Assembly: GCA_051531975.1 (NCBI GenBank)
Contig: JAOPTT010000005.1
Location: forward strand, 32,001-96,000
From: Spirochaetaceae bacterium
GTDB lineage: Bacteria; Spirochaetota; Spirochaetia; DSM-2461
Length of the DNA stretch: 64,000 bases
Direction: 5' to 3'
This document shows positions 12,990 through 34,976 of this stretch, one piece after another (the stretch's first letter is position 1; each line of letters starts with the position of its first letter). The translations under genes and the position numbers were made by a program. Below the pieces are notes generated by a model, which was not told the DNA's origin, ran no database searches, and saw only the letters and a list, made by a program, of their open reading frames with translations.

Positions 12990-13593
12990 TTCGAAAGTTG
13001 TGTTTTTTGGAGACAGTCTGACTCATAGAACAGGTGTTACAATGTCATCGAATCCTGCACAGAGATTCACTCTTGATTATGCAGGAAGTTATGTGGATAT
13101 ATTATTAAAAAAAATATTGGTTCATTTTCCCGATGTTAATTTTGAATCTTATAATATGGGAATTGGTGGAAATACAGTCCCTGATCTTCTGGACAGAATG
13201 GATGATGTTATAACACTATCTCCCGATTGGATCGTTTTGTTTATAGGTCAGAATGATGCCAATAGATACAGCCCTTCAGAATATAAAGATAATCTGGATA
13301 AACTGCTGAATCTATTTCAGGAGAAAGGAATTAGAGTTATTCAACTCTCAACGACCCCAAGTCCTGATAATAAGAAAAATGAGACACTGGCTGAATATGA
13401 TCAGATAATTCAAAGATTATCAAAAAAATACAATAATCCTTATATTGAAGTAAAAGAGTCTTTTAATAAAATACTTAAAATCAATGAAACCGCAGAGAAT
13501 CCCATAAAAGTATTTAATCAGGGCTGTCATATGTCACAATTGGGTAATATTTTAATTGCGGATCTGGTATTTGATGTTTTATCGGGTATTTGA
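12976..13593 (+). CDS. SGNH/GDSL-family esterase
   Basis: FFGDSLT, GIGGNT, IGQND, GCHMS blocks. Confidence 0.85.
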   Translation: MIENNSKVVFFGDSLTHRTGVTMSSNPAQRFTLDYAGSYVDILLKKILVHFPDVNFESYNMGIGGNTVPDLLDRMDDVITLSPDWIVLFIGQNDANRYSPSEYKDNLDKLLNLFQEKGIRVIQLSTTPSPDNKKNETLAEYDQIIQRLSKKYNNPYIEVKESFNKILKINETAENPIKVFNQGCHMSQLGNILIADLVFDVLSGI

Positions 13594-13613
13594 AACTGTA
13601 ATAGGAGAAATAG

Positions 13614-14543
13614 ACGTTAACCGAAGATTTTGAACAATTTAAATATTATCCCGACAGGAAAGAACTTGAAGATTGGATCTCTTCCATATGGGAACTTGCG
13701 GAACAGACTGAATGCACAGTGGAAACAGTGGATAACAACGGTTTTTCCTTTAGCTTGGGAGTAAACCATGTTGGGCAGGAGTTCCATTATGTAAAATTCA
13801 GTCCTAAGGGTATGGAGCCATTTTACGGATACTGGCAACCTGTTCTATCCGGGCCTGCACCTCTATTGTTTCATGTGCCCGGATATGGAGCTGAAATGAG
13901 TACACATCCAGAGCTTGTTGCCCAGGGTTTTAATGTACTGCATGTATCACCTTTGGGGTATGCTACCCCTGATGGTCCCGATGAGACAAAAAAGCGAAAT
14001 GAAGCCTGGCCTGTACTTCCTGATACTGTATTAAGCGGTGCACGGCAGGGATATAAAATCTGGCTGGTGAACTGCATTATGGCTATAAACTGGGCTATGA
14101 AACAGCGTGAGGTGATAGAAAACAGAATCTCATTTTTTGGAACCAGTCAGGGCGGTGGTGGTTCTCTACTGCTCGGTTCAATTTTTAAAGATAGAGGCCT
14201 GCGGTGTGTAGCAGCAGACGTTCCGTTCCTGACTAACTACCCTATGGCAAATGGCAGAGGAGCATATAGCCATGCAACAGAGGGGTTGGATCTTCTGGAA
14301 GACAAAGCAGCCGGATGGAAAGCTCTGGGATTTGTTGACACCATGACACATGTTAAAAGGTTGACCTGCCCGGTTTTATTGACTGCCGGAGGAAAAGATA
14401 CTGTCTGTCCCCCTGAAACGATACAGTCCCTATATGAAAAACTACCAGGGACAAAATCACTGACATATTTTGAGACATTAATACATCGTTATACCAGGGA
14501 GTTTATTCCTCTGGCAGGAGCATGGTTCAGGATTTATGCATAG
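13614..14543 (+). CDS. Acetylxylan esterase-like (CE7/AXE1) alpha/beta hydrolase; likely true start ACG at 13614
   Basis: GTSQGGG nucleophile elbow, DVPFL, GGKDTVCPP, terminal His; frame open back to ACG just downstream of AGGAG (13603-13607). Confidence 0.8.
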   Translation, partial: TLTEDFEQFKYYPDRKELEDWISSIWELAEQTECTVETVDNNGFSFSLGVNHVGQEFHYVKFSPKGMEPFYGYWQPVLSGPAPLLFHVPGYGAEMSTHPELVAQGFNVLHVSPLGYATPDGPDETKKRNEAWPVLPDTVLSGARQGYKIWLVNCIMAINWAMKQREVIENRISFFGTSQGGGGSLLLGSIFKDRGLRCVAADVPFLTNYPMANGRGAYSHATEGLDLLEDKAAGWKALGFVDTMTHVKRLTCPVLLTAGGKDTVCPPETIQSLYEKLPGTKSLTYFETLIHRYTREFIPLAGAWFRIYA

Positions 14544-24018: not shown

Positions 24019-24054
24019 AAAGAAGACACACAGATGGCTTTAGAGGGAAATCAT

Positions 24055-24122
24055 AAATAAGTCTTTTAACAAGATCATCTTCTAAAGTTACATCCAGTAT
24101 AATAGTATTCCATTGCTTTTTA
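24055..24122 (-). repeat. mmcQ/yjbR 3' remnant A
   Basis: Translates KKQWNTIILDVTLEDDLVKRLI vs gene KTHWVSLMIDGTLEDDLIKRLI. Confidence 0.8.
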
Positions 24123-24142
24123 GTGGAATACTTTTACAACAT

Positions 24143-24583
24143 TTATAGTTCAAGGTCTTTTTTGATATATTTAGTGGTATCTAACATTATATTTAGAAGG
24201 TCTTTTGAATACTCCATAACTTCTTCAAATAGCTCTTTTAGGTTTTCTTCTATATATTCATGGACTATTGTATTTCTTAAGTCCTTCATTAGTCTTATTT
24301 TTTCAATACTTTTAATAAGGCCCCTTTTATGAGCATTATTTACTACATCTACGAGTGTTCCTTGATTTTCAAACTCATACTCATCAATTGTTCTAAAAAT
24401 CTTTCTTATTAAAAAATCTATAGACCTGGAGTATCTACTACAAAGGGTTTCAAAATGAACAAACTCTTCCATTGTATACTCAGTTCTTTCTTTAAAAGCT
24501 TTACAACTGTTAATAGAGTATTCAAGTAGTTTTATCTGTTTGTTAAGAAGATCGTAGTCTTTAATAAGTTTCTCTTTTATCAT
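24143..24583 (-). CDS. HEPN-domain toxin (HI0074-like) of MNT-HEPN pair
   Basis: RNTIVHEY R-X4-H motif; ATGA-coupled to the upstream MNT. Confidence 0.8.
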   Translation of the reverse strand: MIKEKLIKDYDLLNKQIKLLEYSINSCKAFKERTEYTMEEFVHFETLCSRYSRSIDFLIRKIFRTIDEYEFENQGTLVDVVNNAHKRGLIKSIEKIRLMKDLRNTIVHEYIEENLKELFEEVMEYSKDLLNIMLDTTKYIKKDLEL

Positions 24584-24864
24584 AATTCTATTGCATCCTT
24601 AAATATAAGTTTAATAAATGGATCACTAAATAAGCCATCATCTAGTACTATATCTATTTTTTGTTCATCAAATTCAGAGAAGAAGTTAACTCTTACTAGT
24701 CTAAGATCTTTTTTTATCATACTTTTTGAGATTATTAGAAGATCAATGTCTCCACCTCTTTTACTATCATCTACTCTACTACCAAATAGATAAATTTTAG
24801 CATTTTTATCAATATTTAAAAGTGAGGTTTTAAAATTGGAAATTTCTTCTTCTGATAATCTCAT
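24580..24864 (-). CDS. Minimal nucleotidyltransferase (MNT) antitoxin
   Basis: YLFGSRVDDSKRGGDIDLL (GS-X10-DXD). Confidence 0.85.
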   Translation of the reverse strand: MRLSEEEISNFKTSLLNIDKNAKIYLFGSRVDDSKRGGDIDLLIISKSMIKKDLRLVRVNFFSEFDEQKIDIVLDDGLFSDPFIKLIFKDAIEL

Positions 24865-25040
24865 TAATTTATTATATATGTTGTTTTGATTATTTAAAAG
24901 TAATAGAGACAATGAGCTTATGTGGTGTTATAATTCTTTACGTATTCAGAATCATTATAATAACTATTTAAAACCTGTGAACAGTTGGTCTAAAGCTTCA
25001 GTGCATTTCTGTTACCCAATATACCTATCCCTGTTCTTAA

Positions 25041-25145
25041 TTCTTCTTTTATCATATTGTTTTTAACTTTCTTAGTAAGTTTGTTAAATACAATCTCATG
25101 GGATTCTGATATAAGCCTTTTAACTAAGTCATCTTCCAATGTTGT
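25041..25145 (-). repeat. mmcQ/yjbR 3' remnant B
   Basis: Translates TLEDDLVKRLISESHEIVFNKLTKKVK. Confidence 0.85.
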
Positions 25146-25255
25146 ATAGCTCAATAACCATTATTACACAGCCTGTAGAAGTAGTTTAAGAAGTCTTTTG
25201 CATAATATTAGTTCTATTTATATCAGTTGCTTAATGAATAGAAATGGGATTCCAC

Positions 25256-25325
25256 CAGTTTACTAGACTTATTTATGTTAATTTATTCATTATAGATTTT
25301 TTTTTGTTCTTTGAAAGTTATATTC
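25256..25325 (-). repeat. mmcQ/yjbR 3' remnant D with 28-bp dif-like site
   Basis: LSKNKKKSIMNKLT* vs gene LSKKDRESIVNKIS*; + strand CAGTTTACTAG ACTTAT TTATGTTAATT (25256-25283). Confidence 0.7.
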
Positions 25326-25532
25326 CGAATCCACAGTTTAATAGAATTAAAAATGAAATAGGTCAATTAAAAAAGTACATGGGCTATATTGCCCATATAC
25401 TTTCTAATATTTTATCGTAGGTTCTATAAGCGATTATCTCTTTTAAACATTTATTGAGGCTAAGATACCCAAAAGAACTAGTCTAACCAGGATTATGTAA
25501 CACTTCTTTGAGACATTATCTGAAAATCCTTT

Positions 25533-26735
25533 TTAAGATATCAATAATTTAATAAATTCAGGACCTTCTATTGTCCCGAATGCACCTCTGTCAGCTGCAT
25601 CTTCTGTATAAATTTCAACATCATCCGGCTCCTGTCCGGGTTTCATAATTATAAAAGGAACCGCTTCTCTTGTATGAGTTCGAAGCTCTACAGGGGTAGG
25701 GTGATCAGGAGTCACTGCTATGGTTAGTTCATCACCTATTTCATCTTTATGCTCTAGCAGATATTTTACAATTCTGTGGTCAAGGTACTCAATACATTTT
25801 ACCTTAAGATCTGTATCACCGTCATGTCCGGCTTCATCTGTCGCTTCAATATGAAGATATAAAAAATCATGTGTTTTAAGTGCTTCAATGGCAGCTTTTG
25901 CTTTCCCTTCATAGTTTGTATCATATAGTCCCGTAGCACCTTCGACTTTAATAATGTCCATTCCGGCGTAAACTCCGATTCCATTTATTAAATCAACTCC
26001 GGAAATTATTGAACCATTTAATCCATAAAGTTCTTTGAAAGTAGGCATAAGAGGTTTATTACCCGGGGACCATGGCCATATTAAATTTGCAGAATCTTTA
26101 CCAGCTTCAACTCTTTTTAAATTTATCGGGTGATTTTTAAGAATCTCATGGGATTTTAGTATAAGTTTATTAATAAGTTCTGCTGTATCTTTACCTTCTT
26201 CATCAATAGGTTTAGCAAGCAGAGTCTTGTAATCAATCCCGGGATAATCATGAGGAGGAAAGCACTCTATTTTTGAACTTCCACCTTTAATTACAAGCAG
26301 GTGCTTATAAGAAATACCCGGGTAAACTTTAACACCTTTAAATTCAGGAGAATTATTAAGTGCTTCTACTAGTTCTGCAGCTTCTTCGGTGGTGATGTGC
26401 CCTGCCGAATGACTTTTAATTTTTTCATCTTCAACACTTATAAAATTAAGACGTAATGCGAGGTCATCTTCATCTAGTTCTATACCCATATTCGCAGCTT
26501 CAAGAACGCCTCTTCCCTGAAAGAATTCATGGGAATCATACCCTAGAACTCCAAGGTTAGCTACAGCACTTCCCTTTGGCATATCATCGGGAATCGTTTT
26601 CAACTTTCCACTTATTCCCGCTTTCGCAATAGAATCAATATAGGGTTTATCTGCAACCATAAGAGGTGTTTTTCCATTTAGTTTTTTTACAGGCCGATCT
26701 GCCATCCCGTCGCCTAGAACAATTACATATTTCAT
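25533..26735 (-). CDS. apgM: Cofactor-independent phosphoglycerate mutase, ApgM type (proposed homoserine kinase subfamily)
   Basis: GDGMADRP, GKTPL, PKGSAVANL, DEAGHDGD, PDHPTP. Confidence 0.88.
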   Translation of the reverse strand: MKYVIVLGDGMADRPVKKLNGKTPLMVADKPYIDSIAKAGISGKLKTIPDDMPKGSAVANLGVLGYDSHEFFQGRGVLEAANMGIELDEDDLALRLNFISVEDEKIKSHSAGHITTEEAAELVEALNNSPEFKGVKVYPGISYKHLLVIKGGSSKIECFPPHDYPGIDYKTLLAKPIDEEGKDTAELINKLILKSHEILKNHPINLKRVEAGKDSANLIWPWSPGNKPLMPTFKELYGLNGSIISGVDLINGIGVYAGMDIIKVEGATGLYDTNYEGKAKAAIEALKTHDFLYLHIEATDEAGHDGDTDLKVKCIEYLDHRIVKYLLEHKDEIGDELTIAVTPDHPTPVELRTHTREAVPFIIMKPGQEPDDVEIYTEDAADRGAFGTIEGPEFIKLLIS

Positions 26736-28096
26736 AAACTCACTCCATAATTTTTTTTAAGATATTCTTTAAAACTTTTGTATTCCTGACCTATTCTGTC
26801 AAAACTTTCTTCTTTATCTTCAATGCCCTGAAGGGAAGGAGGTAACTCAGGATCTATACCTATCAATTTTATTATTTCTGAAGGGAATTTCGCCGGATGA
26901 GCTGTTTCAACAGATACAAAAAGTTTATCTGGATCATCATTTTCTTCCAGATAACTGGTAAGTCCTTTCCAGCCTACCGCACCATGTTGTTCAAGAATAA
27001 CATTATATTTTTTGTAAGCTTCAACTATTGTTTCTTTAGTCGTTTCATCGTCTACACTTATTGTGTAAATGAAGCGGCGTAATTTTTCCATGTCAGCGGT
27101 TTTTCCAATATTCCCTTTTTCATCCATCTGACCGCCAAAAAGATTTATAAGACGAGGCAGATTGCTAGGGTGCCCAACATTCATAGCGTTTGAAACACAT
27201 GCTATTGATGGTTCGATTTTATTATAATTACCAGTTTTAACGAATTTAGGGAATTCATCATTAGAATTTGTAGATATAACTAGCTTTTCTATTGGCAGAC
27301 CCATTCTAGAGGCTATAACAGCACCCATCATATCTCCAAAGTTCCCTGAAGGAATTGAAAAGGTTATTTTTTCTTTTGCTTTTGCCAGTCTAGAGTATGC
27401 CCAGAAATAGTATACCGTTTGAGGTAGAAGTCTTCCAAAATTGATTGAATTGGCGGAGGACAGGTTTAAATATTTTAGATCATCATCAACAAAAGCTTGT
27501 TTAACAAGAGCCTGGCAGTCATCAAATTTACCCTGTAAAGCAAGAGTTGAAATGTTCTTTTTAAGAGTGGTCATCTGTTTTCTTTGTCTTTCAGAGACTT
27601 CAGTTTCAGGAAAAAGAACAAGTACTTTTATATTGTCCAATCCATAATAAGCATTAGCTATAGCACTGCCTGTATCACCGGAAGTTGCAACAAGTATTAA
27701 TAATTTCTTATCATCTTTTTTGAGGAAATGCTGCATAAGACGAGCCATCATACGGGCTGCAAAATCTTTAAATGATGCTGTAGGTCCCTGATCGAGGCGC
27801 ATTATATATTTTCTTTCAAATACGTTTTCTAGAGGGACATCATAATTGTACGCATCTTTAGTAATAAATTTTAGATCATCATCTGAAACAAGATCTCCGA
27901 TAAAAGATTTTGTAACATGGTAGGCTACTTCGTGATATTCCATATCCTTAAATGATTCGATTAATTCATTGGAAAGTTGTGGGATACTTTCAGGCATATA
28001 TAAACCTTTATCAGGAGCAATTCCATTTAAAAGTGCATCTTCGAAATTTACTAATGGAGAATCCCCATTTGTTGAATAAAACATTATCTGGCTCAA
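26732..28096 (-). CDS. thrC: Threonine synthase
   Basis: GIAPDKGLYMP, GPTASFKDFAAR (PLP Lys), ATSGDTGSA, SANSINFGRLLPQ, PSGNFG, TAHPAKF; GGAGG + TTG start at 28096. Confidence 0.95.
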   Translation of the reverse strand: MSQIMFYSTNGDSPLVNFEDALLNGIAPDKGLYMPESIPQLSNELIESFKDMEYHEVAYHVTKSFIGDLVSDDDLKFITKDAYNYDVPLENVFERKYIMRLDQGPTASFKDFAARMMARLMQHFLKKDDKKLLILVATSGDTGSAIANAYYGLDNIKVLVLFPETEVSERQRKQMTTLKKNISTLALQGKFDDCQALVKQAFVDDDLKYLNLSSANSINFGRLLPQTVYYFWAYSRLAKAKEKITFSIPSGNFGDMMGAVIASRMGLPIEKLVISTNSNDEFPKFVKTGNYNKIEPSIACVSNAMNVGHPSNLPRLINLFGGQMDEKGNIGKTADMEKLRRFIYTISVDDETTKETIVEAYKKYNVILEQHGAVGWKGLTSYLEENDDPDKLFVSVETAHPAKFPSEIIKLIGIDPELPPSLQGIEDKEESFDRIGQEYKSFKEYLKKNYGVSL

Positions 28097-28250
28097 GTAT
28101 TCCTCCGGAAAAAAATTGTAAATCAAAATTAGTTAACTAGTAATACCATAAAAAACCCTTAATTTTCAAGTAAATTCAGGAAAGAGTGTATAAATCCAAA
28201 TATAATGAATTTTATTGTTCACTTATAGAGAACTTTTCATTTCCAATATC

Positions 28251-28413
28251 TCTCCCCAGTTTATTAGACATATTTATGTTAAATTGTTTTTTGTAGATTC
28301 TTTAACTTTCTTAAGAAGTTAATTAAATACAATATCATATAACTCTGATATAAGTCTTTTTACAAGATCATCTTCTAAGGTTCCATCTAATATTAGCGAG
28401 ACCAATGTGTTTT
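28251..28413 (-). repeat. mmcQ/yjbR 3' remnant C with 28-bp dif-like site
   Basis: About 115/150 nt identical (manual count) to 34591-34740; CAGTTTATTAG ACATAT TTATGTTAAAT at 28257-28284; internal TAA and 1-nt deletion. Confidence 0.92.
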
Positions 28414-28543
28414 AGTTGAAAAACCACTATTACAACATTTTAATGTTATATTATATATATAAAATTTAAATTGACTCTGTTAATTTACATTTAACTATCA
28501 ATCGATATATGTTATCTTTTTAATATGGATTATAGGAGATATT

Positions 28544-31500
28544 ATGTCTGAGAAAACTACATTACTTGAATCAATTAAGGCTCTAGAATCTCAGCGTGTT
28601 ATTCTTGGTGATCTTGTTGTCGATACAGCTGTAGGTCCACTTAAAAAGAGATTAGAAAAACTCGACTCTGAAGCAAATTCCAAAGTAGAACGAAAATATG
28701 CCACTGTTCTCTTTGCAGATGTTGTTAACTTTACAGCCATGAGTGAGACTATGGATGCAGAAGAAGTTAATGAAACTATCAATGAACTTTGGTCTTATCT
28801 TGATAAAATTATTATTGATCATGGTGGATTTGTCGACAAACATATTGGCGATGCAATTATGGCTCTATTTGGTGCTAAACAGAGCAACGAAAATGATCCC
28901 TCACAGGCTATAAAAGCCGCACTTGGAATGCAGGAAATCATGTTGGATCTGCCTATTAATAAAAGATTAAAAAAACCACTGAAGTTACGAATTGGTATAA
29001 ATACAGGCTCTTTAATTCTTTCCAATGTAGGTTCTAATAACGAATTTACTGCCATGGGAGATACGGTCAACGTTGCAAGCCGGCTGGAACATTCCGCACC
29101 AATTGGTGGTGTACTTATTTCTGATGAAACATTTGTTCATATCAGGAATTTTTATGAAACTGAAAAACAAGATCTTCTTAATGTTAAAGGGAAAAAAGAA
29201 CCAGTACAGACGTATAAGATAATTAATACGAAAGAGAGAGAATTCTATCAAACAAATAGAGGATTAAAAGGCATAGAACAAAAATTTGTAGGACGTGAAG
29301 AGCTCCTAAAAGAATTAAATAATTCTCTAACTATGTGCCAAAATAATAACATTCTAAGTTTTTCCTTAATTTCTGGTGAAGCTGGTGCTGGAAAAACAAG
29401 GCTTATGAAAGAGTTTTCAACTCGGTTCGTATCTAAATCAAATAGTCAAGTTTTATTCTGTAGGACTATGGAGTATGAAAAAAACCAACCTTTCTCTTTT
29501 ATTAGAAATATTTTAAGAAACTTATTTGAAATTCTTGAAAGTGATTCATCAGGAGTTGCTACCAAAAAAGTTGAACAGGGCTTTATTTCAGTTTTAGGTG
29601 AAGGAGGGATTGAAAAATCTCATTTTGTAGGGTTTTTAGCTGGATATGATTTTTCCCAAAGTCCATATCTTGAGGGAATTATTGATGACCCCAAACAGAT
29701 TCACGATATAGCCATCCACTACTTTATCTTGTTAATTAAATCTTTCTCTTCGGCAATAATATTTCTTGATGATATTCACTGGTTTGATGAGAAGTCTTTA
29801 TGGTTATTAGAATATATTATTGAACAGTGTAAAGATAGACCTCTCTATATTCTGGGATGTGTACGATCCAGTTTTCTTGAGAAGAAAACATTTTTAGATA
29901 GTTCAAAAGAATATATTAAAAATATACATCTTAAAAACCTGAATAAGGTTGATAGCAAAAAGTTAATACAAAATTTATTAAATAAGAAGGAAATTACAGA
30001 AGATCTTTTTTCTATATTATATACAAAATCACAGGGGAATCCATTCTATCTTGAAGAGTTAACAGGAAGACTCATGGAATTAAATATAATTGTTTATTCA
30101 GAAGGGGAAGTTGTAGTTCATCTAGATAAATTAGCTAATATTGATCTTCCGCCAACACTACATGGTTTATTACAATCCAAAGTAGAGAGTCTTACAAAAA
30201 ATGAGATTGATATATTACAAAAATCGTCAATTCTAGGTAATAATTTTTGGAATAAGGCATTATTAGAACTATCAGATAAATCAATAGCCCAGGATTTTAT
30301 AGATCAAAGCCTTATTTCATTGGATAATAAATCAATTTTAGAAAAAAACATCAGTTCTTCTTTTTTAGGAGCAAATGAATACATCTTTATTCAAAAACTT
30401 TTGAAAGATGTAGTTTATGAAAGAGTTCTTATAAAAGATAGAAAAAAATATCATTTAATGGCAGCTAAATGGCTTATAGACCAATGTGAAGGAAGAGAAT
30501 ATGAATATGCTTCTATAATAGCCAGGCACTTGGAGCTAAGTAAAGATAATTCTGCTATTAGATGGTTTATAAAAGCAGGAGAAGCATCTTTTAAGGTTAT
30601 GGCCTTGGACGAGGCGTATTTAAATTTTATTAAAGCAGATAAACTAAATATAGATCTAGAAGATACTAATTTACAAATAATTATTGCTTATAATTTGGGT
30701 AGAATTTATCAATTAAAATTTGAATTTAAGAAATCTCTTTCCCAATTTGAATCCATGGGCCACATTGCCCAAGAAATTAATAATCCATCTTATGAAATTG
30801 AGGCATTTTATTACATTGTCAGATTATATTCTGATATGGGGGAATTCCAAAAAATCCTAGAAATGTCCACAAGAATAGATACATTAGTAGAAACAAGTAT
30901 ATTACCAATTGATAAAATGCGTGTATTTATTAGTTATGCCAAGGCTCATTTTAGATTAGGTGACATAGACAAAAGTTTTGTATTTTGTACAAAGGTAATT
31001 GATTTGGCAATAAAAAACAGTGATTTAAAAATGGAATCAGAAGCATGTGGACTTAGTGGTATGTGTTCAAATATTCAAGGGCATTCTGATAAAGCTATTG
31101 AGTATTTAAATCGAGCCATTGTTATTGAAGATAAATTAGGGAACCGTGAGCGATTAATGGCTGTTCAAGGAAATATGGCTCTTACACAATATTATATGAA
31201 TAAAAATAATTTACAGCCTGTTATTTCTACATTCTTAAATATTATTAAAACAGCACAAGATATTGGATTTAAGAGTAGTGAATTAGCGTCTTATAGCAAT
31301 TTAGCTGAATTTTATCTTGAAAAAGGTGAGCTTAAAAAAGCGGAAAACAGCTGTGAAATTGTTATTAAGGGGGTAGATCAAAATCTAACTTTTTTTATTC
31401 CTGATACGTATCGAATACTTTCTATTACTTTATTAAATCAGAAACGTGTTGGTGAAGCTATAATAGCAATAAAAAAAGCAAAAGATCTTGCATTGAAGCA

Positions 31501-31819
31501 AGGCAATATTGAATATCTTGCTCTAATTTGGAGAGTCTTTGCTGAAATTGGAATATTTTTATTAGATGAAAACTTAAACAATGAATTTAAAGAAGAATAT
31601 ACAATAGAAAAAAGCTTTAAACTAAGCCTTCAAGAGTTTAAAAAGATTTCTCATCCAGTAGAACAGTTTAAAACATTAATTGGTTGGTCTAGATACGAGA
31701 GACAATATGGTGATATGGAAAAAGCCAATCAGCTTTGGAATGAAACAAAAGATATCTGTATTGAGTTTAAACTTGAAGACAGATTAATTGAAATGGAAAA
31801 GGAAAAAAAGAGGCACTAG
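28544..31819 (+). CDS. Class III adenylate/guanylate cyclase - STAND (AAA) ATPase - TPR protein
   Basis: FADVVNFT, KHIGDAIMALFG, GDTVNVASRLE; FVGRE, GEAGAGKT, IFLDDIHW, GNPFYLEE; C-terminal TPR-like helices. Confidence 0.9.
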   Translation: MSEKTTLLESIKALESQRVILGDLVVDTAVGPLKKRLEKLDSEANSKVERKYATVLFADVVNFTAMSETMDAEEVNETINELWSYLDKIIIDHGGFVDKHIGDAIMALFGAKQSNENDPSQAIKAALGMQEIMLDLPINKRLKKPLKLRIGINTGSLILSNVGSNNEFTAMGDTVNVASRLEHSAPIGGVLISDETFVHIRNFYETEKQDLLNVKGKKEPVQTYKIINTKEREFYQTNRGLKGIEQKFVGREELLKELNNSLTMCQNNNILSFSLISGEAGAGKTRLMKEFSTRFVSKSNSQVLFCRTMEYEKNQPFSFIRNILRNLFEILESDSSGVATKKVEQGFISVLGEGGIEKSHFVGFLAGYDFSQSPYLEGIIDDPKQIHDIAIHYFILLIKSFSSAIIFLDDIHWFDEKSLWLLEYIIEQCKDRPLYILGCVRSSFLEKKTFLDSSKEYIKNIHLKNLNKVDSKKLIQNLLNKKEITEDLFSILYTKSQGNPFYLEELTGRLMELNIIVYSEGEVVVHLDKLANIDLPPTLHGLLQSKVESLTKNEIDILQKSSILGNNFWNKALLELSDKSIAQDFIDQSLISLDNKSILEKNISSSFLGANEYIFIQKLLKDVVYERVLIKDRKKYHLMAAKWLIDQCEGREYEYASIIARHLELSKDNSAIRWFIKAGEASFKVMALDEAYLNFIKADKLNIDLEDTNLQIIIAYNLGRIYQLKFEFKKSLSQFESMGHIAQEINNPSYEIEAFYYIVRLYSDMGEFQKILEMSTRIDTLVETSILPIDKMRVFISYAKAHFRLGDIDKSFVFCTKVIDLAIKNSDLKMESEACGLSGMCSNIQGHSDKAIEYLNRAIVIEDKLGNRERLMAVQGNMALTQYYMNKNNLQPVISTFLNIIKTAQDIGFKSSELASYSNLAEFYLEKGELKKAENSCEIVIKGVDQNLTFFIPDTYRILSITLLNQKRVGEAIIAIKKAKDLALKQGNIEYLALIWRVFAEIGIFLLDENLNNEFKEEYTIEKSFKLSLQEFKKISHPVEQFKTLIGWSRYERQYGDMEKANQLWNETKDICIEFKLEDRLIEMEKEKKRH

Positions 31820-31855
31820 TTCTCTATTGTTAAAATTGATACTTTGGAATTAAAT

Positions 31856-31909
31856 CAGTTTACTAAACCAAATTATGATAATATCATAAGAATCTCCAAT
31901 AAATATTTT
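31856..31909 (-). repeat. mmcQ/yjbR 3' remnant E with 28-bp dif-like site
   Basis: CAGTTTACTAA ACCAAA TTATGATAATA (31856-31883); 31880-31909 matches 34671-34700 at 23/30 nt. Confidence 0.6.
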
Positions 31910-31913
31910 TATA

Positions 31914-32762
31914 TTACTGTGTGTGTATCTTCAAATAGTTCCTAGGTGATTTACCGAAGTTTTTTTTGAATACTCTGGAGAAGTAGTTATAATCATTAAA
32001 TCCGGATTCATAACATGCGTCGGTATAGGATACACCATTTTGAATGAGGCTCAGGGCTGTTAGACACCGCACTTCATTTATGTAGTGTAGAATAGTCTGA
32101 TTTGTGTGATGTTTAAAAACTCTGCATAAGTGGTTTTTGGTAACACTTAATTCTCGGCTCATATCATCTAGGGTAATCTGAGAGTTGGAATCCCGGGATA
32201 TATAGAATAAAATCTTTTTAACAAGATTTAATGATTCAGGATATTTTTCAGGAATATTTTTCTGCCCATTACCCCCAAGTCTAAGTAGGCGACCGATTAT
32301 CTGATAAATGTATGATCGGATCATATATGCACTCGCTGCATCCTTTTGATGGAATTCTTCTCTTAGAGAAAGAGCAAGTTCAATCAGACTTTTGTCCTGT
32401 TTTATATAAGTTGGGAAATTTTTATATTGTCCAAGAATCCGGTCATTCCCGTCGTTGTAGATACTTTTATCTAGAGAGGAGAGATCTATTTGTACAGTAA
32501 GAAATCTTGTATTATCCAGAAAACCGGTACCCTTATGAAGATCACACCACCCTATATAACCTGTATCACCGGTATAAAGCCACTGTTTTTTCCCATTACA
32601 GAGAACTTCAACCCCACCTTCAAGGACAAAATAGAATTCAATTGCTTCATGCCAATGCAGTTCTGATCCCATACTATTATTCATCCTCTTTTGTTCATTT
32701 ATATGGACGGGGACAACAGAGTCTTTGAGTTGGATATATTCAAACACAGGTAAATGTATCAT
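31914..32762 (-). CDS. AraC-family regulator
   Basis: HWHEAIEF cupin, SGFNDYNYFSRVFKKNFGKSP. Confidence 0.92.
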   Translation of the reverse strand: MIHLPVFEYIQLKDSVVPVHINEQKRMNNSMGSELHWHEAIEFYFVLEGGVEVLCNGKKQWLYTGDTGYIGWCDLHKGTGFLDNTRFLTVQIDLSSLDKSIYNDGNDRILGQYKNFPTYIKQDKSLIELALSLREEFHQKDAASAYMIRSYIYQIIGRLLRLGGNGQKNIPEKYPESLNLVKKILFYISRDSNSQITLDDMSRELSVTKNHLCRVFKHHTNQTILHYINEVRCLTALSLIQNGVSYTDACYESGFNDYNYFSRVFKKNFGKSPRNYLKIHTQ

Positions 32763-32878
32763 AAGAACTCCTTTGACATATCAATATTGTGCTATTATTG
32801 GGGTGTATTATACCTATTATTGATATTATATCAGAATATAATACTAATATAAATAATTAATATAAAGGGGTTAATGAT

Positions 32879-34336
32879 ATGAGAGTTTTATTTGTTGATA
32901 TAGATACACTTCGTCCTGACCATATGGGTTGTTACGGTTATCATAGAAACACTACTCCAAACATGGATAAAATATGTGAAGAGGGGATCAGATTTAACAA
33001 CTATTATACATCTGATGCACCTTGTCTGCCTTCAAGGGCGGCACTTATAAGTGGTATGCACGGATTCAGAAATGGTGCCGTTGGTCATGGTGGGACAGCT
33101 GCAGACCGACGATTAGTTGGTAAGGAGAGAGGTTTCAAAGATTACCGTGATGAAGGGAACTTTCATAATATTTTTAGAAAGGCGGGAATGCATACAGCAT
33201 CCATAAGTACATTCCCTGAACGCCACTCCATGTGGTGGTTTAATGGCGGATTAAATGAAACATACAATGTAGGTAAATGCGGTATGGAATCCGGAGAGGA
33301 AGTAATCCCTGTAGCACTAGACTGGCTTGATAGAAAAGGGTTGGAAGACGACTGGTATCTCCATGTTCATTTATGGGATCCACATACACCATACAGGGCT
33401 CCTGAATCTTTTGGAGAACCATTTGAGGGACAGCCAGTAAAACCATGGCTAACGAAAGAGGTCTTTGAACAGCACAAAAAACATACAGGACCCCATTCTA
33501 TATTGGAGACGGGTATGTATGATGACAATGTTGGGCCGGGAATTATTAGACAACCTGGTATGTGTAGAACTATGGATGAGTATACAAAATTCTTAAACGG
33601 TTATGATACCGGTATATCCTATGCCGACTATTTAATGGGCCAAGTCTTTGATAAGTTAAAATCTCTAGGTATATACGAGGAAACAGCTGTCATAATTACA
33701 TCTGACCATGGTGAGAATATGGGAGAATTGGGAATATATGCGGAACATGGAACTGCAGATAAAGGAACCTGTAACATACCAATGATAATAAAATGGCCAG
33801 GTATTGAAGGTAGCAAAGTTGATAATGGATACCACTATAATCTGGATCTGCTTCCGACTATGGCCGAACTACTATGTGTGGAAAAGTCAGATCATTGGGA
33901 CGGTGAGAGTTATAAATCATGCTTATTCAGTACCGATGAGTTTCCAGGAAGGAACCATCTTATTATTTCCCAGAATGCACATGTCTGTCAGCGGAGTGCT
34001 CTTTTTGACGGATGGCTCTATATTCGAACAATTCACGACGGCTATCATCTTTTTGACAGAGAGATGTTATTCAATCTCAACGAAGATCCATATGAACAAA
34101 ATAATGTTAGGGATGACAACCAAGAGATTTGTGCCAAAGGAGCCAAACTAATCCTTGATTGGCAGGAGGAGCAGATGAAAAAAGATCCATCCAACAGGGA
34201 TCCAATGTGGACAGTAATGAATGAAGGTGGTCCAATGCATACAAAGACAGATCTTAGGTCGTATATTAAACGTTTAAAAGAAACCGGACGGGATGAAGGA
34301 GCCCGGACTCTTGAGCAGAAATATTTGATGTCCTAA
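32879..34336 (+). CDS. Formylglycine-dependent sulfatase
   Basis: DIDTLRPDH, CLPSRAALISG, WDPHTPY, TSDHGE. Confidence 0.92.
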   Translation: MRVLFVDIDTLRPDHMGCYGYHRNTTPNMDKICEEGIRFNNYYTSDAPCLPSRAALISGMHGFRNGAVGHGGTAADRRLVGKERGFKDYRDEGNFHNIFRKAGMHTASISTFPERHSMWWFNGGLNETYNVGKCGMESGEEVIPVALDWLDRKGLEDDWYLHVHLWDPHTPYRAPESFGEPFEGQPVKPWLTKEVFEQHKKHTGPHSILETGMYDDNVGPGIIRQPGMCRTMDEYTKFLNGYDTGISYADYLMGQVFDKLKSLGIYEETAVIITSDHGENMGELGIYAEHGTADKGTCNIPMIIKWPGIEGSKVDNGYHYNLDLLPTMAELLCVEKSDHWDGESYKSCLFSTDEFPGRNHLIISQNAHVCQRSALFDGWLYIRTIHDGYHLFDREMLFNLNEDPYEQNNVRDDNQEICAKGAKLILDWQEEQMKKDPSNRDPMWTVMNEGGPMHTKTDLRSYIKRLKETGRDEGARTLEQKYLMS

Positions 34337-34353
34337 TTCAGATACAACATATT

Positions 34354-34384
34354 GGGCTCCCAAAAAGAGGGAGCTCTTTTTTAT
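34354..34384 (+). terminator. Intrinsic terminator
   Basis: GGGCTCCC-AAAAAGA-GGGAGCTC followed by T-run. Confidence 0.8.
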
Positions 34385-34408
34385 CTTTTTAATAACCGTT
34401 ATTACACC

Positions 34409-34590
34409 CTAGATCACTTTGTGTATTTTCCTGTATTCCCCGGGAGTAATTCCTTCCCGTTGTCTAAAACGTCTGATATAACTTGGGACATTCAGGTATC
34501 CAATAGATTCTGCAATATTTTTTAATAAACAGTCGGGCTTGATAAGTTCTTTTTTACTCTCCTCAATTCTTATAATGGACAGATATGGAA
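34409..34590 (-). pseudogene. C-terminal HTH remnant of an AraC-family regulator
   Basis: YLSIIRIEESKKELIKPDCLLKNIAESIGYLNVPSYIRRFRQREGITPG, then a frameshift before (E)YRKIHKVI*; no N-terminus. Confidence 0.8.
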
Positions 34591-34613
34591 TTCCCCCAGT
34601 TTAATAGACATAT

Positions 34614-34976
34614 TCATGATATTTTATTCACAATAGACTCTCTATCCTTTTTGGATAGTTTATTAAATACAATATCATAGGATTCTGATATAAGTCTTTT
34701 AATCAAATCATCCTCTAAGGTTCCATCTATCATAAGCGACACCCAATGTGTTTTGTTCATATGATACCCAGGAATAATTGCATCAAATAGGTTTCTAAGT
34801 ATTAAGTTATCTTCAGGATCACCTTTAACATTAATTCTAAGGTTTCCATCTGCTTCACCTATAAGGCCAAACATTTTACCACCAACTTTGTAAACTTCAG
34901 TAACATTATCGAAGGGATAGGTTAGTTCTGAACCTTTAAGGGAATCAAAATATTCCATAACTTGGGCTTTAGTCAT
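34614..34976 (-). CDS. MmcQ/YjbR-family DNA-binding protein
   Basis: YPFD, YKVGGKMF, INVKGDPE, IIPGYHMNKTHW, LISESYDIV. Confidence 0.92.
   Translation of the reverse strand: MTKAQVMEYFDSLKGSELTYPFDNVTEVYKVGGKMFGLIGEADGNLRINVKGDPEDNLILRNLFDAIIPGYHMNKTHWVSLMIDGTLEDDLIKRLISESYDIVFNKLSKKDRESIVNKIS

Follow-up and report, generated by a model that had tools for sequence, protein, structure and literature searches.

We analysed a 64-kb window from a Spirochaetaceae bacterium (genome G000, a 5.46-Mb assembly of 29 contigs; positions 32001-96000 of contig C5, JAOPTT010000005.1), in which displaced copies of the 3' end of a small gene, mmcQ/yjbR, follow one another downstream of the intact gene with other genes between them. 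The arrangement is very probably a tandem stack of small cassettes that arose by repeated site-specific integration (accretion) in mmcQ/yjbR. The gene, its displaced pieces and two conserved blocks that accompany them, motif A and motif B, are given below. Feature positions are counted within the window, and C1, C9 and similar labels denote other contigs of the same genome.

34614-34976, minus strand: intact mmcQ/yjbR, 120 aa (Pfam PF04237 YjbR, E=6.8e-27)
34752-34754, minus strand: codon K75, marking the putative left attachment site (attL) inside mmcQ/yjbR, with the junction directly 5' of this codon (gene-versus-remnant junction alignment)
34585-34625, minus strand: motif B copy 1, a conserved block across and past the stop codon
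34412-34585, minus strand: C-terminal stub of an AraC-type regulator, decayed cargo (blastx against the genome's AraC-type C-termini, best E=3.6e-10)
34391-34409, minus strand: motif A alone (element-side arm), the yjbR 3' part behind it lost
31844-31909, minus strand: weak, internally deleted yjbR 3' remnant with motif B (marginal score)
28245-28437, minus strand: most complete displaced junction, resembling a right attachment site (attR), with motif A, yjbR codons 75 to stop and motif B
25244-25325, minus strand: remnant with the last ~55 nt of yjbR and motif B, without motif A
25040-25171, minus strand: remnant with motif A and yjbR codons ~86-116, a 28-nt deletion behind the motif, without motif B
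24050-24140, minus strand: most distal remnant, shortened motif A and yjbR codons 75 to ~97

All window copies share the strand of the intact gene. Their significance was estimated by local alignment to the 3' part of the gene, with 500 shuffles each. The scores of the copies at 28.3, 25.3, 25.1 and 24.1 kb were matched by none of the 500 shuffles, and the 28.3-kb copy was 79% identical to the gene across 161 nt. The 31.9-kb copy was marginal: its score was reached by 5/500 shuffles and by 40 of the 7890 intergenic windows used as background, and a 41-nt matrix trained without it gave 22.9 bits, which ranked sixth genome-wide and under one background site (23.3 bits). This piece is probably a real copy with an internal deletion. 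A first-pass annotation had described five diverged copies in one orientation; the orientation and four of the copies are clear, and the fifth is the marginal one. It had also taken the copies for one and the same 3' piece, whereas they are differently deleted parts of one junction. To the five intervals it claimed, the lone motif A at 34391-34409 adds a sixth, with an AraC tail that had been missed. This motif is the second-best site genome-wide for a 19-nt matrix trained on other genera only, and no yjbR likeness follows it (125/500 shuffles reached the score). Together with the weak 31.9-kb piece, it could represent a single junction split by the sulfatase module described below.

An iterated DNA profile run on the whole genome returned nine loci at E<1e-14 (the gene, four window copies, two sites on C1 and two on C9), and the next match stood at E=0.21. 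The additional loci have the same gene-cargo-motif-remnant layout:

C1:218357-219755: decayed whole gene, HicA-type pair and a motif-A remnant cut by an insertion sequence (IS)-like end
C9:312596-314066: internally deleted copy, PD-(D/E)XK pseudogene and a motif-A remnant

The genome-wide scatter expected of a generic repeat was thus not seen, and that candidate was ruled out by the same search, its nine loci lying at three places. The C1 and C9 loci also have in common a 330-bp upstream block and decayed ssb copies. We further considered that motif A and the yjbR fragment might be a transposon end, or a repeat like a miniature inverted-repeat transposable element, that clusters near the gene. 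The motif begins near TGT and contains a short palindrome, copies lie on three contigs, one relative (G015) has two junctions and no intact gene that we could find, and one interval of another (G018) contains IS3 and IS110 genes. However, the nine loci are all direct and follow a yjbR that is either whole or decayed, neither a second inverted end nor a transposase common to the arrays was found, and phylum-wide motif matches remained at control level, which makes this explanation extremely improbable.

The junction is fixed to the codon. In intact genes, the codons H-M-N/S precede Lys75; in remnants, the same Lys codon is preceded by TGTRYAATAAYGGTTATTCCAYT (motif A), a non-gene sequence of ~26 bp that ends directly before K75 and had been overlooked in the first-pass annotation. 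The alignment comprised 11 remnants in good preservation, which came from four genomes and a single metagenome sequence; remnants with indels in the arm were left out. Left of the junction, 24 of the 26 positions agreed in 8-11 of the 11 remnants, those farther out mostly in 4-7, and six intact genes diverged from the remnants on this side; no long arm-type region was conserved beside the junction. Motif A occurs four times in the window (34409, 28437, 25171 and about 24140), and each well-preserved unit reads as yjbR codon K75 to stop, cargo, and the ~26-bp motif A. A DNA model trained on other genera only recovered the C9 copy (E=1e-6) and the 24.1-kb copy (E=0.0014). The junction is spanned by two inverted 9-bp sequences that lie 7 bp apart, and gene-like sequence begins at the left edge of this 7-bp spacer. 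Sites of large serine recombinases have a 2-bp crossover at their centre of symmetry; here the AA behind the junction is near-invariant but also belongs to the invariant Lys codon, and the spacer of the inverted pair is odd.

In four copies of the window and one of C9, motif B runs across the stop codon and beyond it. Motif A, the yjbR part and motif B stand together only at the 28.3-kb junction, the other junctions having lost one or two of these by deletion. Host XerC/D acting at motif B, with the units as dif-module-like cassettes, would account for such a block, and on the plus strand motif B has an 11+6+11 layout in which one arm equals, at 28.3 kb, what we take to be the XerD-arm consensus and is one base off at 25.3 kb. 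Past the stop codon, its copies are ~86% alike, against differences of 40-60% at synonymous sites. Yet three of the five copies fit the arm poorly, the other arm is without inner symmetry, all copies are direct, and the arrays of other genera lack motif B, as do two alleles here. The site at C5:299916-299943 is a better dif candidate, although itself present in none of four relatives within three mismatches; it is the best dif-like site of the genome when ranked against a presumed consensus. The likeness of motif B to dif is post hoc, partial and confined to this genome, and we consider a role for XerC/D very improbable.

The displaced ends differ from one another as the 3' ends of working genes do. 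The ratio of nonsynonymous to synonymous differences per site (pN/pS) was below 1 in all 42 copy pairs (range 0.05-0.68) at 61-88% nucleotide identity; these are uncorrected Nei-Gojobori values over 19-38 codons, from non-independent pairs and with frameshift-indel copies left out. As neutral decay of local duplicates would give values of ~1, the 3' ends must have diverged within working genes, and by their substitution pattern the displaced ends are imported alleles, not decayed local duplicates. This bears out the first-pass impression of different alleles. One remnant in a metagenome locus, L052, was 82% identical to an allele of another lineage, and its identity to five resident genes was 47-58%. 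At 24.1 kb, the remnant farthest from the gene in the window was nearer (pN 0.09) to the gene of another relative, G003, than to the resident gene, from which it differed by a pN of 0.25, and closer to the G003 gene than the resident gene's own end is, as expected if it is an older end.

These data also bear on an origin that needs no dedicated recombinase, namely homologous recombination between yjbR 3' copies, or old local duplications. The copies offer ~140 bp of homology, no recombinase was found, and in the relative G014 the gene end equals the first remnant at 54/54 nt. As such an origin leaves unexplained the fixed non-gene motif in three genera, the pN/pS values below 1 and the foreign-lineage allele, we consider it very unlikely and largely refuted. 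Homologous recombination may nevertheless have deleted or shuffled units secondarily.

The six intervals in the window measure roughly 0.36, 2.5, 3.5, 3.1, 0.18 and 1.0 kb (some ends estimated). Their genes, identified with Pfam, are as follows (GC3, GC content at third codon positions):

32879-34336, plus strand: sulfatase (PF00884; GC3 0.34)
31914-32762, minus strand: AraC/cupin regulator, divergent from the sulfatase (GC3 0.33)
28544-31819, plus strand: adenylate/guanylate cyclase - AAA_16 (STAND) - TPR protein, 1091 aa
26732-28126, minus strand: threonine synthase (thrC), second genome copy
25533-26735, minus strand: ApgM-type phosphoglycerate mutase
24580-24912, minus strand: minimal nucleotidyltransferase (MNT)
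24143-24583, minus strand: HEPN (HepT-like) partner of MNT

The cargo lies on both strands and includes the divergent AraC/cupin-sulfatase pair, whose GC3 values compare with 0.208 +/- 0.046 for the genome. In the 1091-aa protein, PADLOC PycC models match the cyclase domain only. The cargo thrC was 39-41% identical to the other thrC of the genome and to those of three relatives, and because it is a second, distant copy, we rejected the possibility that thrC-apgM are backbone genes. The MNT-HEPN pair also occurs in G002, at 75% identity and without yjbR flanks. Pfam confirmed the cargo labels of the first-pass annotation (AraC with sulfatase, cyclase-STAND-TPR, thrC with apgM, and MNT-HEPN), and the spacer interval of ~110 bp that it mentioned was located at 25145-25256. 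Its statement that the window lacks an integrase, transposase or tRNA agreed with our searches: no tRNA was found within the 64 kb, whole-genome family searches placed no tyrosine recombinase or resolvase there, and there was no transposase among the 38 of 73 window open reading frames (ORFs) scanned against Pfam.

Integrons are marked by an IntI gene adjoining the array, attC sites between cassettes and cassette genes mostly in one orientation. The locus resembles them in its array of small cassettes, its defence, toxin-antitoxin and metabolic cargo and its single entry site, but it has no adjacent IntI, no attC, and cargo on both strands with divergent regulator-enzyme pairs. A model of the genome's own attC-like family found 18 sites genome-wide and none in the window, a result that applies to that family only. 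On these three grounds an integron was ruled out, and the term 'integron-like', used in the first reading, is apt as an analogy only. A true integron does exist elsewhere in the genome (C8:31741-43311, with C22, C3 and C25), where the 18 attC-like sites are spread over several contigs.

The motif-plus-junction pattern (≤3 mismatches) was present in 5 of 38 genomes of the family, with no control matches; two matches in G001 sat inside unrelated genes and were dismissed as chance. Motif A and the K75 junction are common to three genera of the family and to public metagenomes. In genus g3, the backbone consists of HAD, kinase, regulator and MORN genes followed by yjbR, and it is kept up to the MORN gene in 4/4 genomes. 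After this backbone, G018 has the yjbR gene and three remnants, and G010 a decayed gene and one remnant; in G014 the gene lies at a contig end and five junctions are on another contig, and in G005 yjbR is absent behind the shared backbone. Metagenome locus L052 (three near-identical contigs counted as one) contains the gene and six remnants, and G015, of genus g4, contains two junctions.

Cargo at the shared backbone position differed among G018, G014, G010 and L052. Apart from the IS genes of the one G018 interval, the relatives' cargo comprised Phd-ParE, Fic, TetR-GNAT, amidohydrolases, AAA_14-DUF4143 ATPases, methyltransferases and a MalT-type regulator, and candidate defence genes among all cargo were PDC-S01, SoFic and cyclase-STAND. 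The prediction that modules would differ at the repeats across relatives thus held at the level of the family (same backbone, other cargo), but not at that of strains. Over the arrays we listed about 22 intervals, plus C9, with units of 0.2-8 kb that mostly contain one module. The smallest, L052:10019-10200, is a cargo-free unit of 182 bp with a foreign-lineage yjbR allele and has a truncated twin in G014. The tail of this unit recurs at L024:7460-7500 in G014, and upstream peptides resembling its own were seen in the public proteins P0017, P0023 and P0028. In three genera, AAA_14 + DUF4143 ATPases (PADLOC PDC-S01) were encountered repeatedly, within yjbR arrays or next to them:

L024:6085-7284, AAA_14 + DUF4143 ATPase
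L024:9906-11282, AAA_14 + DUF4143 ATPase
L061:7125-8360, AAA_14 + DUF4143 ATPase
L034:10781-11992, AAA_14 + DUF4143 ATPase

No arrays were found outside the family in the samples searched. A class-wide yjbR profile matched 54/401 genomes, with multiple 3' fragments per genome only in the family of the window; a second class sample queried with the remnant peptide gave matches in 22/400 and no new array; and a phylum-wide motif search matched 32/401 genomes, which is the level of the reversed-pattern control. Single yjbR fragments without motif A (in G004, G044, G024, G197 and G264) were set aside. As yjbR was essentially whole in 5424 of 5426 E. coli genomes, it is not a general hotspot. In a public protein collection, 36 short matches were obtained, and 12 of the 18 that were fetched start with the peptide encoded by motif A, indicating that gene callers annotate the junctions as small MmcQ proteins; among proteins of this type, one is labelled Deltaproteobacteria and one is G014's own. 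In G003 (L062:3800-5902 and 13239-14453), yjbR comes after dinB and a SRAP-like gene and is free of remnants, with an IntI-like gene 7 kb away (genes labelled by eye from their translations).

We explain the array by accretion at an attachment (att) site in mmcQ/yjbR of non-autonomous units that resemble cis-mobilizable elements (CIMEs), with a large serine recombinase (LSR) as the enzyme, and we assign this explanation a probability of roughly 0.6. A circular cassette would join motif A to its own yjbR 3' end, forming attP, and would recombine with the gene either on the Asn74/Lys75 boundary or immediately behind it. The incoming 3' end would make the gene whole again, the old end would be pushed downstream behind motif A as attR, and the rebuilt mmcQ/yjbR would be usable for the next insertion. 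More tentatively, the LSR may belong to an element absent from the assemblies, either deleted or visiting and acting in trans; such loss or action in trans would make the units CIME-like. Excision, and the order of insertion at the locus, we infer.

Repeated insertion with a new 3' end each time, as the first-pass annotation proposed, is supported by the fixed junction with motif A, the varied cargo on a syntenic backbone, the divergence of the alleles and a proteobacterial LSR whose target reads as the same codons. The latter is row cluster11159 in a supplement of PMC10083194, where the table does not name the target gene. Translated by eye, its attB reads as mmcQ/yjbR, and the 12 nt common to attB and attP fall on the H-M-N-K codons, junction included. 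That element disrupts the gene and carries its own LSR. The conserved element-side arm of ~26 bp fits an LSR half-site of ~20-25 bp and complete LSR att sites of ~40-50 bp (PMC12286644), which counts for a serine enzyme. We counted likewise the recQ and comM arrays of the same type in this genome and the LSR genes that adjoin recQ broken at residue 352/353 in three genomes. PMC10083194 reports comM as enriched among LSR targets, with the magnesium chelatase gene serving as the target for 12.4% of the LSRs that are site-specific.

The comM/yifB array (C6:150725-173282; L171, L172) consists of the intact gene and four displaced 3' pieces that are 82-90% identical and up to 858 nt long; the pieces begin close to the Walker A codons and are separated by cargo and IS fragments. 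In the recQ array (C12:131701-145712), 5' halves are displaced, and the break at residue 352/353 is that of the LSR-adjacent recQ pieces in G050, G025 and G071. Other clustered repeat families occur at C6:592203-678451, C2:472234-487600 and C1:53525-59316; a phage-type integrase adjoins one of them, and resolvase genes adjoin another.

Several observations weigh against accretion driven by an LSR. No recombinase lay beside any yjbR junction, PF07508 was present in 3 of 38 family genomes and in none of the five array-bearing ones (G000, G014, G018, G010 and G015), and neither a yjbR fragment nor motif A occurred in any of 68 recombinase-bearing loci (30 from a class-wide LSR search). The first G014 interval is cut by a contig gap that could hide a recombinase gene. 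A substitute 3' end is missing from the attP of cluster11159, whose core is by itself not enough to fix the crossover. The assembled contigs of one possible source run showed neither a circle nor a clean joint left by excision. The closest genomes available for comparison, three congeners, do not share the gene order of this locus. The G014 gene end, as noted, equals its first remnant, and neither in the window nor in G014 or L052 are the copies steadily more decayed the farther they lie from the gene. Finally, an inverted pair with a short spacer is tyrosine-recombinase geometry, and the 9-bp pair with its 7-bp spacer at the junction is more like the core of such an enzyme.

A tyrosine recombinase able to cope with mismatches in an overlap of 7 bp, in the style of Tn916/CTnDOT, could also have driven this accretion, and it would have come from a lost element or be host-encoded elsewhere. 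The inverted pair across the junction, with gene-like sequence from the left edge of its spacer, would suit this enzyme, and all five relatives tested carry tyrosine recombinases beyond those of XerC/D size. Tyrosine enzymes also serve the majority of islands that restore a gene, and among 937 tycheposon-type elements they serve 910 (bioRxiv 2020.12.28.424599). However, the spacer varies in a protein-coherent way between neighbouring units (K-K-H, K-E-H, K-R-H, K-V-H), so that mismatch tolerance would be required; no long arm-type region is conserved; and motif A or a yjbR fragment was present in none of 30 tyrosine-recombinase loci from the array-bearing genomes and G003. We regard a tyrosine enzyme as unlikely.

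In the genome as a whole, PF00589 matches fell on C17, C8, C6 and C3 and none in the window; the recombinases comprise enzymes the size of XerC/D, one phage-type integrase, two small resolvases and the product of an IntI-like gene, which lies on C8 and has an array of its own. No site-specific tyrosine or serine recombinase domain was detected in 51 chosen ORFs of the other arrays and their flanks or in the window cargo, and no autonomous partner element was found in family, class, viral and recombinase-locus searches. A viral collection gave three motif matches, all chance, and 18 + 29 loci with yjbR-like or chance matches, with a serine-recombinase motif in 0/29; phage records gave four weak matches only. 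As for the excised circles that the first-pass annotation had proposed to look for by read mining, the assembled contigs of the one run contained none. This run covers the stretch evenly, and the likeliest sources of its three joints are the C1 paralogue and other strains at low depth. A low-depth contig (5.8) and a joint in this run, X1 (window 25298-34657 and 31682-31812), suggest a co-occurring strain in which the end of the cyclase-STAND gene may adjoin a fuller yjbR 3' end, over a length too short to judge.

By their layout in the sequence, the units would qualify as CIMEs. The locus works like the accretion of CIMEs with integrative and conjugative or mobilizable elements (PMC5704250), with units bounded by direct att-like sites, one of which carries the target gene's end, and with no integration or transfer genes in the window cargo or the 51 chosen ORFs of other arrays (except the IS3/IS110 genes of G018 and the gap-cut G014 interval). 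It differs from that accretion in that no recombinase was found in any of the about 22 intervals, the units measure 0.2-8 kb, and insertion takes place midway in a small protein-coding gene, of which ~140 bp of coding sequence are replaced per event. The ssrA islands of Dehalococcoides, with the CcrB-like serine recombinase DsiB (PMC3146451), are similar in their tandem arrangement, displaced target fragments and a conserved non-target motif upstream of each repeat that marks the insertion point; their target is a transfer-messenger RNA, their repeat is 20 bp, and many of them, unlike any unit here, carry an integration module. In tycheposons (bioRxiv 2020.12.28.424599) and the tRNA-anchored islands of Islander (PMC4383910), new elements likewise push old ones inward, leaving partial target copies and a restored target, but the targets are tRNA genes and the integrases self-encoded and mostly of the tyrosine type. 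Tandem att-delimited islands are treated as common (bioRxiv 2026.01.13.699239). A literature search, with bioRxiv supplements and the TIGER/Islander database outside it, returned no description of an mmcQ/yjbR site and no spirochaete case. The principle of island building is thus known, and what appears to be new is the target gene, the junction motif of three genera, the smallness and number of the units, the shared empty unit of 182 bp and the absence of a recombinase-bearing member from the material searched.

A further possibility, which we hold as a tentative and rather doubtful one, is integron-like capture without a resident integrase. Cassettes that are natively non-autonomous, the empty 182-bp unit being the smallest, would form a family-wide pool and circulate among several dedicated sites (mmcQ/yjbR, recQ and comM). 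Visiting serine-recombinase elements, or a host enzyme that escaped recognition, would move them in trans, and each event would swap the C-terminal third of MmcQ. If this were true, the cassettes would make up a separate class instead of being just islands in decay.

The locus represents a protein-coding integration hotspot that island finders anchored on integrases would miss, and motif A followed by the yjbR 3' end provides a precise signature for cassette arrays in free-living spirochaetes. These arrays are rich in toxin-antitoxin, candidate defence and metabolic genes, and their defined junction makes testable how islands without a recombinase arise and move. If the cassettes were indeed moved in trans as a pool, the family would have arrived at an independent solution to the integron problem.

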